Shown piece by piece: positions 23,621-64,000 of a DNA stretch of 64,000 nt. Made by a program: the position numbers and the translations under genes. The DNA is from Candidatus Poribacteria bacterium (GTDB lineage Bacteria > Poribacteria > WGA-4E > PCPOR2b), in assembly GCA_965198175.1 (NCBI GenBank), contig OZ240245.1, positions 2,015,278 to 2,079,277 of the forward strand, given 5' to 3'. The notes under the pieces were generated by a model. That model was not told the DNA's origin. It saw only the letters and a list, made by a program, of their open reading frames with translations, and did not search any database. The number at the start of each line of letters is the position of its first letter. The stretch's first letter is position 1.

Positions 23621-23803
23621 AAAATATATTCTTATTTCGTTTCAGCGAGATTACGGAATATCGTGTTTTCTTTTTTGGATACCCCCAATATGTTGAAATC
23701 GGCAGTGAAAAATGAGCGCAAAAAACGCTTGATCTCTTTTTGATTTTTTGATAGACTATCATCCAATCGGGTCCCCTCATTCTTTTGTACTTTTATGAAT
23801 TAA

Positions 23804-25009
23804 TTGTCCCGGAATAATCAGCATATTGTAAGATATATTCAATCTCCAATTCCAAGGAAGACAGTAATGACTTTGAATGGAGTTAGCGACGATACCTCCA
23901 CCCCATCCGACTTATCTGCAGAGCATCAGTCTTCCGAGTTGCCAGCAGTTGCGCCAACTTCAGTCCCTCGTACACCTCAAAATTCAGGATTGAATCTCGC
24001 CTTAACCTTTGATCGATTTGTGGTAGGAGAAAGTAATAAAAAGGCTTGTGAAGCGGCGATAGCCGTGAGCAATCAAGCAATGCACGTAGACAAGTTAATT
24101 GTTCATGGCGGTGTAGGGCTCGGCAAGACGCACTTGTTACATGCAATTGGGAACCAATTTCATCAAAAAAATCTGAATCACACAACGTATTGCCCATCTG
24201 CTGAGAAATTCATGGGTGAATGGATTCAATCAATTGCAAATCCCCAGAAATCAAATGCCTTACGGCAGCGGTATCACACCATTGATTTGTTATTGATTGA
24301 CGACATTCACTTTTTATCCAAGAATACGAAAGTTCAAGAGGAATTTGTTCACCTGCTCAACCACTTGAGTAGGCAAAACCAGCGCATTGTATGTACGTGC
24401 GATCGCCTACCTCAGTTTCTCAAAGACTTTCTGGCGTCTTCGAATGTCCTCAAGAATGGCTTAATCGTTGAAATTTCTCCGCCTGAGTTTGAATTGCGGG
24501 TTTCTATCCTAAAGCGGAAGTTACGGGAACGGAATTTCGGACCTGTACCCTTGAGGGTGCTTAATTATCTTGCGAAACATCTGACACAACACGTCCGCCA
24601 GCTCGAAGGGGTTTTAAACCGTCTTATGGCGGAAGTCCGTTTGGGGTCGAATTTAAATCTTGAAATTGCGCGCCGCGTTGTAGAGAAGCGGTCAAACTTG
24701 AATCTTTCAGGCACAATCACGCTTGAAACAATTCAAGAGGCAGTCGCTCGATATTTCCATCTTACCTTATCGGACTTATGCTCTCGAAAGCGTGGACGAC
24801 GGTTTGTGCTGCCGCGGCAAGTGGGGATGTATCTTACTCGCGAGTTAACCGCGCTTTCTCTATCACAAATCAGCCAGGGTTTTGGTCAAAGCCACCATAC
24901 AATCGTTGTCAGGAGCTATCAACGAATCGAATCACTTCTCAAGGTGGATCTGGTTCTTAGCCAGTCCATTGAAACCTTGAAAACAGAGCTGACACAACCC
25001 CAAAAATGA
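23804..25009 (+). CDS. atypical DnaA paralogue (AAA+ domain III and domain IV, no domain I)
   Basis: TFDRFVVG, GGVGLGKTHLL, LLIDDIHF, QEEF, VRQLEG and PRQVGMYL; lacks RLxSR and GGRDHTTV. Confidence 0.85.
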   Translation: MSRNNQHIVRYIQSPIPRKTVMTLNGVSDDTSTPSDLSAEHQSSELPAVAPTSVPRTPQNSGLNLALTFDRFVVGESNKKACEAAIAVSNQAMHVDKLIVHGGVGLGKTHLLHAIGNQFHQKNLNHTTYCPSAEKFMGEWIQSIANPQKSNALRQRYHTIDLLLIDDIHFLSKNTKVQEEFVHLLNHLSRQNQRIVCTCDRLPQFLKDFLASSNVLKNGLIVEISPPEFELRVSILKRKLRERNFGPVPLRVLNYLAKHLTQHVRQLEGVLNRLMAEVRLGSNLNLEIARRVVEKRSNLNLSGTITLETIQEAVARYFHLTLSDLCSRKRGRRFVLPRQVGMYLTRELTALSLSQISQGFGQSHHTIVVRSYQRIESLLKVDLVLSQSIETLKTELTQPQK

Positions 25010-25136: not shown

Positions 25137-25163
25137 GGGGGCAGGTTTGAAACCTGCCCCTAC
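25137..25163. repeat. REP-like palindrome
   Basis: GGGGCAGGTTT-G-AAACCTGCCCC followed by TAC (end complementary to GTAG). Confidence 0.65.
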
Positions 25164-34459: not shown

Positions 34460-36445
34460 ATGAAAACAACTTTAACGTTACTTGCGCTTTTCATCCTGTC
34501 CTCATGCAACACCTCCTCCCATGATTCCCCGCAATGGGGTTTACCTGAAGGGGTTAAAGTACGCCTCGGAAAGGGCGCGATAGGTCAAATACAATATTCT
34601 CCCGATGGCACGCGGCTTGCCGTCGGCAGTGGTATCGGTATCTGGCTCTACGATACAACGACCCATCAAGAGGTTGCCCTGCTCACCGGACATTCGGGGG
34701 TTGTCATGAGTGTCGCGTTCAGCCCGGATGGCAGCATACTGGCGAGCGGGAGTTCGGACAAAACCGTTCGTCTGTGGGATGCCGCAACGGGTGCACACCT
34801 ACACACATTGGAGCGACATGCGGATGCCATCATGAGTGTCGCGTTCAGCCCGGATGGCGGCACGCTAGCAAGTGTGTCGCATACGACCATTCGTCTGTGG
34901 GATGTCGAGACGAAAACATCTAAGCGGTCATTGGAACTGCGAACCCTGAAAGGAGATACATTTTCCGTCAGCACTGTCGCGTTCAGCCAGGACATCTCGA
35001 TGTTGGCGGGCGGGAGTTATGGCAAGACCTTCCATCTATGGGATGCGGTGACAGGTATACAACTTCACACACTAGAAGGTCATACGGAGTATGTGACTAG
35101 CTTCGCTTTTAGTCCGGATGGCGGTACACTGGCAAGTGGAAGTTGGGGTGATAGCATCCGCCTGTGGGATGCTAAGACGGGGATACACCTTCGGAAACTG
35201 GAAGAACGTGTACCTATGGTCTCGTGCGTCGCCTTCAGCCCGGATGGCGGCGCGCTCGCAAGTGGTGGACCTGGCACGACCATCGATTTGTGGGATGCTG
35301 CAACCGGCGCGCGGCTGCGTACACTGGAAGGACATGCGGGTTGGGTCACTGATGTCGCCTTCAGTCGGGACGGCGCAACGCTAGCAAGTGGGAGTGACGA
35401 CTCGACCATCCGTCTGTGGAATCGGGCGACGGGCGCACACCTAGGAACACTAAAGGGACATATAAGTTATGTCAATAGCCTCGCCTTCAGCCCGGACAAC
35501 GCAACGTTGGCAAGTGCGAGTCGGCGAGATCCCATCCGTCTATGGGATGCAGCGACGGGCGCGCACAAGCGGTCACTGCACCGGTATCTATCGCACGCCA
35601 ATAACGTCGCATTTAGCCCTGATGGACGAACGCTGGTGAGTGGGAGCGATGATTACCATACCATTGAGTTCTGGAATGTCAGGACAGGCGCGCACCTGCG
35701 ATCACTGAGAAGCGATACGGGCGATCACTACAGCATCGCATTCAGCTCAGATGGTTCTACCCTCGCGAGTGGGGATGGAAACACTTCCGTTCACCTGTGG
35801 AATGCGATGACAGGCGCGCACCTGCGATCACTGAGAAGCGATACGGGCGATCACTACAGCATCGCATTCAGCTCAGATGGTTCTACCCTCGCGAGTGGGG
35901 ATGGAAACACTTCCGTTCACCTGTGGAATGCGATGACAGGCGCGCACCTGCGATCACTGAGAAGCGATACGGGCGATCACTACAGCATCGCATTCAGCCC
36001 GGATGGCGCTACACTGGCAAGTGGGAGTGGCGACCATACCGTCCGTCTTTGGGATGTCGTGACAGGGGCACACCAGCAAACTCTGAAGGGGCATACGGCG
36101 GACATCATTAGCGTCACCTTCAGCCCGGATGGCGCGACGCTAGCAAGTGGGAGTGGGGACAATACCGTCCGACTTTGGGAGGCCGTGACGGGGACACATC
36201 GCCGGACCTTAGAGGGACATACGTTGGATGTCTGCACCGTCGCTTTTAGTCCGGATGGTGGCACAGTAGCAAGTGGGAGTGGGGACACTACCATACGTCT
36301 TTGGGATACCGGGACAGGCGCACACCAGCAAACCCTGAAGGGGCATACGTCAACCGTCAAAAGCCTCGCATTCAGCCCGGATGGCAGCACACTGGGAAGT
36401 GGGAGTTACGACGGCACCGTGCTCCTGTGGAATCTTTCCCGTTAG
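34460..36445 (+). CDS. WD40-repeat lipoprotein (15 repeats)
   Basis: Lipobox LSSC at residue 16; 15 AFSPDG-type repeats. Confidence 0.9.
   Translation: MKTTLTLLALFILSSCNTSSHDSPQWGLPEGVKVRLGKGAIGQIQYSPDGTRLAVGSGIGIWLYDTTTHQEVALLTGHSGVVMSVAFSPDGSILASGSSDKTVRLWDAATGAHLHTLERHADAIMSVAFSPDGGTLASVSHTTIRLWDVETKTSKRSLELRTLKGDTFSVSTVAFSQDISMLAGGSYGKTFHLWDAVTGIQLHTLEGHTEYVTSFAFSPDGGTLASGSWGDSIRLWDAKTGIHLRKLEERVPMVSCVAFSPDGGALASGGPGTTIDLWDAATGARLRTLEGHAGWVTDVAFSRDGATLASGSDDSTIRLWNRATGAHLGTLKGHISYVNSLAFSPDNATLASASRRDPIRLWDAATGAHKRSLHRYLSHANNVAFSPDGRTLVSGSDDYHTIEFWNVRTGAHLRSLRSDTGDHYSIAFSSDGSTLASGDGNTSVHLWNAMTGAHLRSLRSDTGDHYSIAFSSDGSTLASGDGNTSVHLWNAMTGAHLRSLRSDTGDHYSIAFSPDGATLASGSGDHTVRLWDVVTGAHQQTLKGHTADIISVTFSPDGATLASGSGDNTVRLWEAVTGTHRRTLEGHTLDVCTVAFSPDGGTVASGSGDTTIRLWDTGTGAHQQTLKGHTSTVKSLAFSPDGSTLGSGSYDGTVLLWNLSR
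35684..35998 (+). repeat. perfect 126-bp tandem repeat (2.5 units) inside the WD40 gene
   Basis: Units start at 35684, 35810 and 35936; encode HLRSLRSDTGDHYSIAFSSDGSTLASGDGNTSVHLWNAMTGA. Confidence 0.92.
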
Positions 36446-60708: not shown

Positions 60709-62058
60709 ATGAACGATATTATTATGAGAAATTCGAGAAAAGCGTTCCTGTGCTTCACAGCTTTGTGGCTTTCCTTGTGCAGTATAACAACTGTGGCATC
60801 TGCACAGACCGCCGAGCAGATTGCCGAAAAAGCGCTAGCGGCTACAGTCTATTTAGAGATGACGGATAGGAACGGCAAAACTCTCGGATTTGGCAGCGGC
60901 TTCTTTGTCGGGAAGAAACATATCGCAACCAACTTCCACGTTATTGAGGGAGCGGCAAAAGGCACCGCAAAACAGGTCGGCAAATACACGAAATATACCA
61001 TCGAAGGCATATCCGCGACCGATAAAAAAAACGACCTGGCCATCCTAAAGGTCACGGCGTTTAGGGGCGAACCCCTTCCCCTCGGTGACAGCGATGCGGT
61101 TAGAATTGGCGAAACGGTTTACGTTGCGGGCAACCCGAGAGGACTGGAGGGCACGTTCTCGAATGGCATCGTCAGCAGTCTCCGCGCGAGGTACACGCGA
61201 AAACGGATTCAGATGACCGCCCCAATTTCCCCGGGAAGCAGTGGTGGTCCCGTGCTAAACAGCAACGGAAAAGTCATTGGAGTCTCTTTCATGACTATTG
61301 AAGGCGGCCAGAACCTGAACTTTGCCATTCCGTCAAACTATCTCAAATCGCTGCTTCGACAGTTTGAACCAGCGAAACCTTACCGGCAAGCGGTACAAAC
61401 CACGGCTGATGCAGTCGAACTTGTCGCCGCCATCGCACATTATGACAAGGCAATTCGCTTGAAACCCGATCACGCCGATGACTACGTTAATCGGGGACTT
61501 TTGAAGTCTAAATTAAGCCAATATTCCGGCGCCATCGCTGATTATAGCAGGGCAATCCGTCTCAAACCCAATTACGCCAATGCCTATTACTATCGAGGGA
61601 AAGCGAAGCATGATTTAGAAAAGTATTCCGGTGCAATCGCCGATTATAGCAAGTCCATCCGCATAAAACCTGATTATGCTGCTGCCTACAACAATCGCGG
61701 GAAGGCGAAGGCTGACTTAGGTGAACACAACGCCGCCATCGCAGATTATGACAAGGCTATCCGCCTCAAACCCGATTATGTCGATGCATACGTCAATCGG
61801 GGACTTGCAGAGTATGACTTAGGTCAATACTCCGCTGCAATCACTGATTATGATGCTGCAATCCGTCTGAAACCCGATCTTGCCGCTGCCTACTACAATC
61901 GGGGACGTGCAAAGATTCTACTAGGGCTCACTAGAGAAGCCAAGCAGGATCTGCAATCCGCAATTAAACTGGCGGAACGGGGTGGCGATGGTAACCTCAA
62001 AGCTAAGAGTAGTTTAGTTCTTAGGCCAATCGAGTTGAAATCCCAACGATTGCGATGA
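60709..62058 (+). CDS. trypsin-like serine protease with C-terminal TPR repeats
   Basis: Signal peptide; catalytic triad TNFHV, NDLAIL, GSSGGP; about five 34-aa TPRs. Confidence 0.9.
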   Translation: MNDIIMRNSRKAFLCFTALWLSLCSITTVASAQTAEQIAEKALAATVYLEMTDRNGKTLGFGSGFFVGKKHIATNFHVIEGAAKGTAKQVGKYTKYTIEGISATDKKNDLAILKVTAFRGEPLPLGDSDAVRIGETVYVAGNPRGLEGTFSNGIVSSLRARYTRKRIQMTAPISPGSSGGPVLNSNGKVIGVSFMTIEGGQNLNFAIPSNYLKSLLRQFEPAKPYRQAVQTTADAVELVAAIAHYDKAIRLKPDHADDYVNRGLLKSKLSQYSGAIADYSRAIRLKPNYANAYYYRGKAKHDLEKYSGAIADYSKSIRIKPDYAAAYNNRGKAKADLGEHNAAIADYDKAIRLKPDYVDAYVNRGLAEYDLGQYSAAITDYDAAIRLKPDLAAAYYNRGRAKILLGLTREAKQDLQSAIKLAERGGDGNLKAKSSLVLRPIELKSQRLR

Positions 62059-62071
62059 GGATGGTTACACA

Positions 62072-62335
62072 ATGAACAGATCGCTAAGTGAATTCGATCC
62101 CCAGATTGTTGACATAATGCGCCAAGATTTGAATCGGCAGCAAAACTGTTTAACACTGATTCCGTCGGAAAACTATGCCAGTAAAGCGGTTATGCAGATG
62201 CAGAGCAGTATCCTTGCTAACAAGTATGCCGAGGGCTACGCTGGTGACCGATATTACAATGGCTGCGAGTTTATAGATCAAATAGAGACACAGTCACAAT
62301 TTGAATTGCCTAGAGAACGGTGTGGGTTGGGTTGA
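62072..62335 (+). pseudogene. glyA: 5' fragment of serine hydroxymethyltransferase
   Basis: LIPSENYAS...NKYAEGY..RYYNGCEFIDQIE, then homology stops after about 74 codons. Confidence 0.85.
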
Positions 62336-62413
62336 GAGCATATGTCTGTTAAGGAGAAGCATTGTTCTGTTTTTGAGAAGGTGGCGTTGTAAAGCTAGAA
62401 GCGATACAAACGG

Positions 62414-64000
62414 ATGATGAGCAATTTAGTTATGAAAAATCCGAGAAAAGCGTTCCTGTGCTTCACAGTATTGTGGCTGTTCTTGTGCAGCATAATAACT
62501 GCAGCGGATGCACAGACCGTCGAGGAGATTGCTGAAAAAGCGTTAGCGGCTACGGTCTATTTAGAGATGACAGATAGGAACGGCGAATCCGCGGGTTTTG
62601 GCAGCGGTTTCTTTGTCGCGCAGGACCAAGTAGCTACCAACTTCCACGTTATTGAGGGAGCGGCGAAAGGTACGGCGAAGCAGGTCGGCAAATACACGAA
62701 ATATACCATCGAAGGTATATCCGCGACTGATAAAGAAAACGACCTTGCTATCCTAAAGGTCACGGCGTTTGGGATCGAACCACTTCCCCTCGGTGACAGC
62801 GAAACGGTTAAAATTGGCGAGACGGTTTATGTTGCGGGCAATCCGAGAGGGCTGGAAGGCACGTTCTCGGATGGCATAATCAGCAGTCTCCGCGAACGGT
62901 ACACCCGAAAACGGCTCCAGATGACCGCCCCGATTTCACCGGGCAGCAGCGGTGGTCCCGTCTTAAACGGCAAGGGGAAAGTCATCGGGGTCTCTTTCAT
63001 GATTCTTGAAGGTGGGCAGAACCTTAATTTTGCCATTCCGTCAAGATATCTCAAGGCGCTTCTTTCCCGGTCAAAGCCAGCGAGACCTTTCGCGCCAGGG
63101 AAACAACCCATCTCTGCCGAGACGTACTTTAGTTTGGGGAATATGAGGTACGACCTAGGACTATATAAGATAGCGATTGAGGATTATGACAGGGCAATCC
63201 GATTGAAACCCGATTTCGTCGATGCCTACGTCAATCGGGGGTCTTCGAAGGCTGGCTTAGGCAAATACATTGCCGCCATATCCGACTATGACAGAGCAAT
63301 CTGCCTGCAACCCGATTTAGTCCAAGCATACTACAATCGCGGATTAGCGAAGGACGAATTAGGCGAACACATTGCCGCCATAGTCGATTATAACGCTGCA
63401 ATTCGCTTAAAACCTGATTATGCCGACGCCTACGTCAATCGGGGGCATGCGAAGGCTGGCTTAGGCGAATACATTGCCGCCATATCCGACTATGACAGAG
63501 CAATCTGGATCGAACCCGATGATGCCAAAACCTACAACAATCGTGGAGTTGCTAAAGATGAATTAGGCGAACACATTGCCGCCGTAGTCGATTATAACGC
63601 TGCAATTCGCCTAAAACCCGATTATGCCGTTGCCTACGTCAATCGGGGGTCTTCGAAGGCTGGCTTAGGCAAATACATTGCCGCCATATCCGACTATGAC
63701 AGAGCAATCTGCCTGCAACCCGATTTAGTCCAAGCATACTACAATCGTGGGGTTGCGAAGGCTGAATTAGGCGAACACATTGCCGCGATCGCCGACTATG
63801 ATGCTGCAATCCGTCTGAAACCCGATGATGCCGATGCGTACTTTGATCGGGGATCTTCGAAGCACAACCTAGGACAATACATTGCCGCGATCGCCGATTA
63901 TGATGCTGTAATCCGCCTCCAGCCCGATTCTGCCGATGCCTACTTGAATCGGGGATTAGCGAAGAATGATTTAGGCGAATACATTGCCGCCATAGTCGAT
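62414..64000 (+). CDS. second trypsin-like protease-TPR protein (runs off the window)
   Basis: Paralogue of 60709-62058 with intact H/D/S motifs; long TPR array; no stop before the window end. Confidence 0.88.
   Translation, partial: MMSNLVMKNPRKAFLCFTVLWLFLCSIITAADAQTVEEIAEKALAATVYLEMTDRNGESAGFGSGFFVAQDQVATNFHVIEGAAKGTAKQVGKYTKYTIEGISATDKENDLAILKVTAFGIEPLPLGDSETVKIGETVYVAGNPRGLEGTFSDGIISSLRERYTRKRLQMTAPISPGSSGGPVLNGKGKVIGVSFMILEGGQNLNFAIPSRYLKALLSRSKPARPFAPGKQPISAETYFSLGNMRYDLGLYKIAIEDYDRAIRLKPDFVDAYVNRGSSKAGLGKYIAAISDYDRAICLQPDLVQAYYNRGLAKDELGEHIAAIVDYNAAIRLKPDYADAYVNRGHAKAGLGEYIAAISDYDRAIWIEPDDAKTYNNRGVAKDELGEHIAAVVDYNAAIRLKPDYAVAYVNRGSSKAGLGKYIAAISDYDRAICLQPDLVQAYYNRGVAKAELGEHIAAIADYDAAIRLKPDDADAYFDRGSSKHNLGQYIAAIADYDAVIRLQPDSADAYLNRGLAKNDLGEYIAAIVD
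63224..63747 (+). repeat. TPR-coding repeats with 204/408-bp periodicity
   Basis: Exact 116-bp repeat at 63224-63339 and 63632-63747; second repeat family near 63356 and 63560. Confidence 0.85.

Follow-up and report, generated by a model that had tools for sequence, protein, structure and literature searches.

DnaA is nearly always encoded by a single gene, with origin opening and gene regulation combined in one protein. The present analysis concerns a second DnaA-family gene, referred to as the paralogue, in a 64,000-nucleotide stretch of the genome of a Candidatus Poribacteria bacterium (assembly GCA_965198175.1, contig OZ240245.1, positions 2,015,278 to 2,079,277; this whole stretch is the window). 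It spans positions 23867 to 25009 of the window on the forward strand, as do all features given below, and encodes 380 amino acids (aa). Canonical DnaA, as represented by the model TIGR00362 and the proteins of E. coli, B. subtilis (8BTG) and A. aeolicus (2HCB/3R8F), shares with the paralogue an AAA+ domain III with Walker A and B and sensors I and II, and a helix-turn-helix (HTH) domain IV with R399, R407 and Q408. Unlike canonical DnaA, the paralogue has no domains I-II, R281 or R285, its R227, K243 and L290 equivalents are replaced and its residues 432-439 are recoded; furthermore, it lies neither beside oriC nor beside dnaN and scores below the TIGR00362 cut-off. A literature search found no paper on a DnaA paralogue of Poribacteria or on a natural DnaA paralogue without an arginine finger.

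Among the described relatives, Hda/HdaA (TIGR03420) is alike in being a short DnaA-derived AAA+ protein with no domain I, a short N-terminal tail and no role as an initiator. Hda depends on an arginine finger that it carries itself and on a clamp-binding motif at its N-terminus (QL[SD]LF / QLxLxL). Hda has no domain IV, whereas the paralogue has one and is without a finger, and its tail motif is not convincing as a clamp motif; the paralogue reaches 77.6 bits with the Hda model, for which the cut-off is 194.8. RIDA, a regulatory process that inactivates DnaA and in which Hda is the inactivator, is summarised in PMC5742627. The finger mutants E. coli R285A and B. subtilis R264A, the equivalent of R285, likewise pair an ATP pocket and box binding with the absence of a finger, and give neither ATP-dependent oligomers nor origin opening (PMC5742627, PMC10721633): R285A retains nucleotide and box binding yet is inactive (PMC5742627) and R264A abolishes strand separation (PMC10721633). 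These are single substitutions in complete initiators, whereas in the paralogue an old, natural loss is accompanied by changes at four other interface residues, by the absence of domain I and by new DNA-reading residues, and has been kept by selection.

The extra copies of Chlamydiae (DnaA2/DnaA3; Waddlia ChIP-seq, PMC4989314) are also DnaA-family genes found in addition to an initiator, and are possible initiator or transcription-factor paralogues with no established role. A kinship with such second copies in bacteria of the Planctomycetes-Verrucomicrobia-Chlamydiae type had been raised in an earlier note, made from the DNA letters of the window; the tree described below speaks against it, as it shows an independent duplication nested in the DnaA clade of the paralogue's own order. 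With the DnaA model NF009087 (PRK12422), presumably the chlamydial type, the paralogue scores 121 bits against a cut-off of 657. Finally, DnaA of Caulobacter, B. subtilis and E. coli acts as a transcription factor through promoter binding by domain IV, which is also predicted for the paralogue; there one protein has both jobs, whereas the paralogue would be a split-off gene with a different specificity.

Nucleotide pocket, assembly surfaces and DNA reading

The conclusion that the paralogue would be unable to do an initiator's job is well supported. With no domain I it would not recruit the helicase, and with no finger, R281, R227, K243 or L290 it would not build an ATP-dependent filament. The earlier note had held that the protein probably cannot initiate replication, and this is strengthened by the loss of both domain I and box VII together with the presence of a complete canonical dnaA and oriC elsewhere in the genome. 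Motifs were aligned with E. coli and B. subtilis DnaA and with other DnaAs, residue numbers being those of E. coli, onto which B. subtilis numbers were mapped in the present analysis. Residue counts across the clade are for 100 paralogues and 48 canonical sequences, with 138 diverse DnaA-family representatives as a wider background, and regional identities compare the paralogues and canonical copies of the same seven genomes.

The losses are clearest in box VII (aa 183-199, 24413-24463), where the degenerate segment QFLKDFLASSNVLKNGL is one residue shorter than its canonical counterpart and, in place of EDRLKSRF, the alignment reads KDFLAS-SNVLKNG, with no arginine, as had been noticed before. 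Both R281 and R285 are arginine in 48/48 canonical sequences; among the paralogues arginine occurs in at most 1% at R281 and 0% at R285, and the background figures are 98% for R285, 96% for R281, 94% for R227 and 90% for K243. Another arginine at the finger position was sought and none was found, the columns of the box VII helix core all having at most 1% R plus K; over the whole 16-residue segment, 60/100 paralogues have no arginine anywhere and 25/100 have neither R nor K. In addition to what the earlier note had seen, R227 (AID-1) is replaced by K, Y, Q or H, K243, which serves oligomerisation and contacts a DNA phosphate, is replaced by E in 89%, and L290 (AID-2) is variable, so that all five head-to-tail assembly residues (R285, R281, R227, L290 and K243) are replaced clade-wide. 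These same five are required for domain III-domain III assembly of E. coli DnaA (PMC5742627), and K222 of B. subtilis, the equivalent of K243, is essential and touches a DNA phosphate (PMC10721633).

The N-terminus is altered as well. A disordered tail rich in S, T and P (aa 1-39, 23867-23983) replaces domains I-II, with an AlphaFold2 predicted local distance difference test (pLDDT) score below 50 for residues 1-39 and an S/T/P content of 45% over 40 residues. Since TIGR00362 aligns only from position 80 onwards (positions 80-437), domain I is absent, and the canonical DnaA of the same genome has some 85 more N-terminal residues; the earlier description of a short S/T/P-rich linker in place of domain I thus holds. 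Where the tail borders on the AAA+ domain it contains a short motif conserved across the clade, [EQK]L[PS]xx[VIA]PTSxxR, which reads QLSPGV in family f2 and begins with E or K in family f1 (f1 and f2 being the two families with the paralogue), and the identity of the tail is 0.57 among paralogues against 0.21 for the canonical linker in matched genomes.

The nucleotide pocket, on the other hand, is kept. Walker A (GGVGLGKT, aa 81-88, 24107-24130), Walker B (LLLIDD, aa 141-146, 24287-24304), sensor I (TCDR, aa 177-180, 24395-24406) and sensor II (VRQLEG, aa 243-248, 24593-24610), all reported in the earlier note, are intact in the alignments. The equivalents of K178, T179, E204, D235, D236, D269 and R334 are retained in 99-100% of paralogues, K178, T179, D235 and R334 in 100% and D236 and D269 in 99%. 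A model of the paralogue by AlphaFold2, of moderate confidence (mean pLDDT 69.8), has DnaA chains as its best structural matches. Given the region-by-region identities, selection has released the assembly and single-stranded DNA (ssDNA)-handling surfaces while holding the nucleotide switch and the DNA-binding domain. With an identity of 0.35 among paralogues and 0.90 among canonical copies, box VII varies more than any other block of the folded protein; residues 241-262 of the alpha5/6 region (0.53 against 0.91) and the initiator-specific motif (ISM; 0.58 against 0.78) are relaxed too, whereas the paralogues are at least as conserved in the sensor II lid (0.85 against 0.74), in Walker A and in domain IV (about 0.72 against 0.68).

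Domain IV, the HTH DNA-binding domain (aa 284-380, 24716-25006), matches PF08299 with 84 bits, and, as modelled, it can be laid over the DnaA-box-bound domain IV of E. coli (1J1V) with a template modelling (TM) score of 0.95 and a root-mean-square deviation of 0.9 A over 93 columns. The equivalents of R399, R407 and Q408, which contact the DNA backbone or minor groove, are conserved in 100% of paralogues. Nevertheless, the signature with which the recognition helix begins has been recoded (GQSHHTIVVRS, aa 340-350, 24884-24916), and the change from GGRDHTTVLHA given in the earlier note is reproduced by alignment: R432 becomes S in 95%, D433 becomes H in 37% or is deleted in 61%, H434 becomes R in 69% and stays H in 30%, and H439 becomes R in 80%. 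The second change that the note had listed, from LPEIG to LSQIS, is also present, but the loss of P423 that it entails is no argument for an altered specificity, because the canonical DnaAs of this genome and its relatives are without P423 too (FTEIA, LMEIA, LLDIA) and these bona fide initiators have perfect TTATCCACA boxes in their oriC. In a DnaA box, the helix of residues 434-451 reads TnCACA in the major groove and R399 reads TTA in the minor groove (PMC5742627). The signature residues for TnCACA are D433, H434, T435 and H439. Of these two box-reading parts only the helix that reads TnCACA is recoded in the paralogue, R399 and the HTH scaffold being kept, and the predicted site would share the 5'-TTA half and differ in the 3' half.

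Origin of the paralogue and the canonical locus

On the evidence of the tree, the paralogue is the product of a duplication inside its own order, followed by one burst of change and then by vertical inheritance. The maximum-likelihood tree unites all paralogues in one clade (100/100), whose stem has a length of 1.87 changes per site and which falls inside the DnaA clade of the order itself (100/100); this identifies an in-lineage duplication and rules out horizontal transfer from another phylum. Within the paralogue clade the topology follows genera and families. At the duplication node the paralogues are sister to the canonical copies of a third family, f3 (91/87), although a clade with the canonical copies of f1 and f2 is not rejected (approximately unbiased test, p = 0.13). 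Identity among homologues runs from 100% to 56% and then drops sharply to about 41%, where the canonical DnaAs of Poribacteria begin. A profile search of 1.84 billion representatives returned one full-length cluster (676 bits) and one fragment, with the next match at 339 bits or less. In a sample of 121 genomes of the phylum, the paralogue is present in 19/19 f1 and 9/9 f2 genomes, with the frame intact in all 28, and no second copy was found in the f3 genomes.

By its pairwise ratios of nonsynonymous to synonymous change (dN/dS), the paralogue is under purifying selection, with values of 0.09-0.21 against 0.07-0.20 for the canonical gene, and 93 columns are invariant across 31 paralogue sequences down to 57% identity. 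Some members carry the public label "chromosomal replication initiator protein DnaA", which can mislead origin prediction and analyses that rely on single-copy markers.

The genome of the window is a single contig of 4.92 Mb with exactly two PF00308 genes, the paralogue and a canonical dnaA, and for this reason it has no Hda. The earlier note had left it to be seen whether the paralogue is the sole dnaA; it is not, as the canonical copy encodes 446 aa with domain I, box VII (EERLRSRFEWG) and RDHTTVLHA, and shares 39% identity with the paralogue over 363 residues. The canonical locus has the order rpmH-dnaA-oriC-dnaN and lies 1.66 Mb from the paralogue. Its dnaA-dnaN intergenic region contains the only DnaA-box cluster of the genome, with 8 boxes (at most one mismatch) in 600 bp, of which 4 are perfect, and the next-best spot genome-wide, with 4 boxes, is just upstream of dnaA; there is no such cluster near the paralogue, as had been remarked on from the window. 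The oriC boxes are followed by TAG-TAG-TAG-TAA trios and then an AT-rich stretch, and boxes, trios and AT-rich stretch together form a basal unwinding system as in B. subtilis (PMC10721633). The genome has a weak, irregular cumulative GC skew, lowest near 1.11 Mb and highest near 2.45 Mb, which gives no sign of the dnaA-dnaN origin located at 0.374 Mb; it was rejected as a means of placing the origin.

Possible roles of the protein

The reading preferred here, for which belief and doubt are about evenly balanced, is that the paralogue is a neofunctionalised DnaA descendant that acts as a nucleotide-gated, sequence-specific regulator binding double-stranded DNA, and that it does not initiate replication. 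The protein would bind ATP or ADP, its domain IV would bind DNA sites with the 5'-TTA half kept and the 3' half different and, given that the DnaA filament cannot form, it would act either as a monomer or by way of a contact that is new and non-canonical. Its nucleotide state may set DNA affinity or activity and so report the energy or cell-cycle state of the cell to target promoters or sites. Such a regulator would be a split-off of the transcription-factor side of DnaA; DnaA of Caulobacter is a transcription factor whose nucleotide state appears to shift it between initiation and transcription (PMC3193534). The paralogue is a natural separation-of-function allele long kept by selection, with the switch and domain IV preserved, the filament-building elements shed and the DNA-reading residues changed. 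If it is a regulator, it would show an initiator giving rise to a nucleotide-gated transcription factor and would provide a system for asking what the ATP switch of DnaA does beyond initiation.

Several observations weigh against a regulator of this kind. The hydrolysis residues of sensor II and Walker B are strictly kept though the protein has no arginine finger of its own to trigger hydrolysis, and of the five residues with which B. subtilis DnaA captures ssDNA bases four (I190, I193, R202 and E228) are kept, which a protein binding only double-stranded DNA would not need. The base-reading loop varies within the clade, being SHHT in genus g1 and in f2, SHRT in genus g3 and S-RT, with a one-residue deletion, in genus g2; this is odd for one fixed motif and, given these differences between subclades, DNA specificity may have drifted within the paralogue family. 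No binding site was found, nor a hint at a target: no neighbour is conserved across f1 and f2, and the upstream regions of 13 loci (the window and 12 others) have no repeated motif in common beyond a promoter block. A genome-wide scan for clustered 9-mers, which can be seen to work since it recovered the DnaA-box cluster of oriC, found no non-coding cluster attributable to the paralogue, the top clusters of the window being coding repeats of the WD40 and tetratricopeptide repeat (TPR) types.

The earlier note had proposed either a nucleotide-sensing regulator of new specificity or a dominant-negative modulator of canonical DnaA, and both are candidate roles. The kept pocket and base-capture residues raise the possibility that the paralogue caps the end of the DnaA filament. 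In this role, the main rival though judged unlikely, its ATP site would take the arginine finger of the last DnaA protomer, docking at the same finger site that a helicase loader would use, and it would present no finger to the next protomer or loader and no domain I to the helicase; filament growth and helicase loading would stop, and the paralogue would stand in for the missing Hda, replacing control of the Hda/YabA type. The pattern of an invariant ATP pocket and sensor II beside a donor face that has lost R281, R285 and L290 fits a cap, E. coli R285A being itself a DnaA that keeps nucleotide and box binding and is inactive (PMC5742627), and in the origin complex of B. subtilis the fingers point to the growing ssDNA end, so that a protomer arriving with bound ATP docks through its ATP site (PMC10721633). 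However, the charge reversal of K243 to E and the loss of R227 affect residues that are both needed for DnaA-DnaA contacts, the ISM and alpha5/6 are relaxed relative to the canonical copy, and a strongly conserved domain IV with altered base-reading residues is needless for a pure cap. A comparison of f1/f2 with f3 origins, furthermore, found no paralogue-specific motif and no extra conserved motif inside the oriC of paralogue-bearing genomes. If the paralogue were a cap, replication control of a new kind would be at work, with a class of initiation inhibitor not known before.

An adaptor role is less probable still, and is doubted here: the conserved N-terminal motif would bring a partner such as the sliding clamp to DNA, with the ATP site as the switch. 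The tail motif [EQK]L[PS]xx[VIA]PTS is placed just before the AAA+ domain, where the QL[SD]L-type clamp-binding motif of Hda also sits, and conservation is higher in the tail than in the canonical linker. Clamp-binding motifs, however, are hydrophobic at their fourth and fifth positions and this motif is not, its first residue in f1 is E or K, not Q, and an Hda-like stimulation of DnaA-ATP hydrolysis is impossible because the paralogue has no arginine finger. That the paralogue still initiates, at a second origin or under special conditions and by way of a rewired subunit contact, is very improbable. B. subtilis DnaA without domains I-II does separate strands in vitro (PMC10721633), and the weak GC skew does not point to the dnaA locus, but five assembly residues and domain I are both lost, no box cluster or AT-rich unwinding element lies beside the paralogue, the neighbours differ between families, among complete genomes its separation from oriC ranges between 8% and 37% of the chromosome, and a complete classical origin accompanies the canonical gene. 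The almost free evolution of the box VII segment might be taken to indicate a decaying duplicate with no function; this is barely credible, given that the dN/dS values contradict decay, the frame is intact in every f1 and f2 genome sampled, the invariant columns persist across the clade and the promoter block is conserved across two families.

Gene structure, candidate sites and the wider order

The longest open frame at the locus (23804-25009) begins with TTG at 23804 and would encode 401 aa, and this had been taken as the gene. The true start is almost certainly the ATG at 23867, because the ribosome-binding site AAGGAAGA (23854-23861) lies 5 nt before it and all homologues (378-389 aa) begin there. 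The protein matches Bac_DnaA (PF00308) with 145 bits over residues 63-211 and Bac_DnaA_C (PF08299) over residues 308-375, and its score with the DnaA equivalog TIGR00362 (337.5 bits) is just below the curated cut-off of 343.9. The family assignment and gene call thus draw on the Pfam and TIGR00362 matches, the homologue starts and the dN/dS between orthologues. As had been stated, the gene follows era, the upstream product scoring 370.6 bits against a cut-off of 237, and is not beside dnaN, which is at the canonical locus; a Nudix hydrolase, an aminotransferase and a thiamine-pyrophosphate enzyme are encoded downstream. A conserved operon partner was considered and rejected, era being upstream only in most of f1 and leuC downstream in the inspected f2 loci, with neither in one f1 genome.

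To judge from its own conserved, predicted promoter and a terminator-like hairpin, the paralogue is a single-gene unit. The predicted promoter (23720-23757) consists of an A-tract, a -35 element TTGATC (23729-23734), a 17-nt spacer and an extended -10 element TGATAGACT (23749-23757); transcription is predicted to start near 23764, with a 5' leader of about 100 nt. The block AAAAAA-N-CTTGAT[CT]-N-TGATA[GA]ACT is found upstream of the paralogue in all 13 f1 and f2 loci, though the flanking genes differ, and the strict promoter pattern occurs once in the 4.92-Mb genome; the block probably acts as a promoter. Downstream, the hairpin (25137-25161) resembles an intrinsic terminator, with an 11-bp stem, 7 G-C pairs and a T-rich tail. 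Two readings of the -10 region as a binding site were discarded: the palindrome TGATAGACTATCA over the -10 of this genome is not conserved in the other loci, and the box-like reading TTATCAAAA fails as some loci read TTATCAGAA. A promoter-like 28-nt sequence, TTGACGCACTAGGTAATCCGCTTAGACT, occurs near-identically about 14 times on both strands of the genome and is probably part of a repeated element.

In the f2 loci L018 (6030-7301) and L022 (7952-9174), about 1.2 kb upstream of the paralogue contains no frame of at least 100 aa, and no repeats or boxes were found there; the repeat search of these gene-free regions gave only short two-copy chance matches. Among 9-mers enriched in intergenic DNA, a dispersed repeat, CGCTCAACCCAACCTACAAGAACT, has about 205 copies in the genome of the window, where the window itself shows it at about 45749 and at about 45937. 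Copies are many in f1 and in genus g6 of f2 (the 13-mer core reaching about 160), fewer in f3 (up to 49) and absent in genus g4 of f2; in a fourth family, f4, 6/7 genomes have none and one has 4 copies. As the repeat is found in f3, which has no paralogue, and is absent from a paralogue-bearing f2 genome, its distribution does not track the gene and it was ruled out as the paralogue's site. The coding tandem repeats of the window, at 35672-36406 and 61425-64000, are of two kinds: WD40-like with units of 126 nt, in which identity between copies reaches 95%, and TPR-like with units of 102 nt.

The order as a whole looks unusually plastic for initiation, with one family pair that has an extra copy, one family with altered boxes and one without detectable dnaA. 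In f3 (loci L027-L031), which is without the paralogue, the origin has the same layout of box array, inverted pair, tandem pair, TAC/TAG trios and AT-rich stretch, but in its boxes TTATCCACA is replaced by TTATGCACA, TTATCAACA or TTATTAACA/TTATTATCA, and a single origin often has a mixture of these. The DnaA signature of f3 has D433N, genus g5 reading NHRTITYA, and the gene after the origin is recF, not dnaN, in four readable loci. The seven genomes of f4 (G052, G063, G080 and G121-G124; 3 genera, 80-96% complete) gave no dnaA, with 0/3 for PF00308, 0/7 for the canonical DnaA of the window genome (E<=0.01) and 0/7 for PF08299, whereas the positive control dnaN (PF00712) was found in 7/7 (loci L040-L046); the region upstream of dnaN in locus L045 has no DnaA-box cluster. 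Thus f4 may be a DnaA-less lineage next to one that duplicated dnaA.

Other unusual DnaA-family proteins are present in the library of representatives. P0250, P0207 and P0255 are also without R285, and P0250 (366 aa), which reads DRLKHSFARG, is without domain I as well, while P0140 and P0260 have no domain I and keep box VII. Two matched stretches in P0121, P0123 and P0125 (673-697 aa) suggest that these may carry two DnaA-like modules, and P0124 and P0127 are DnaA-family proteins nearly 2000 aa long.

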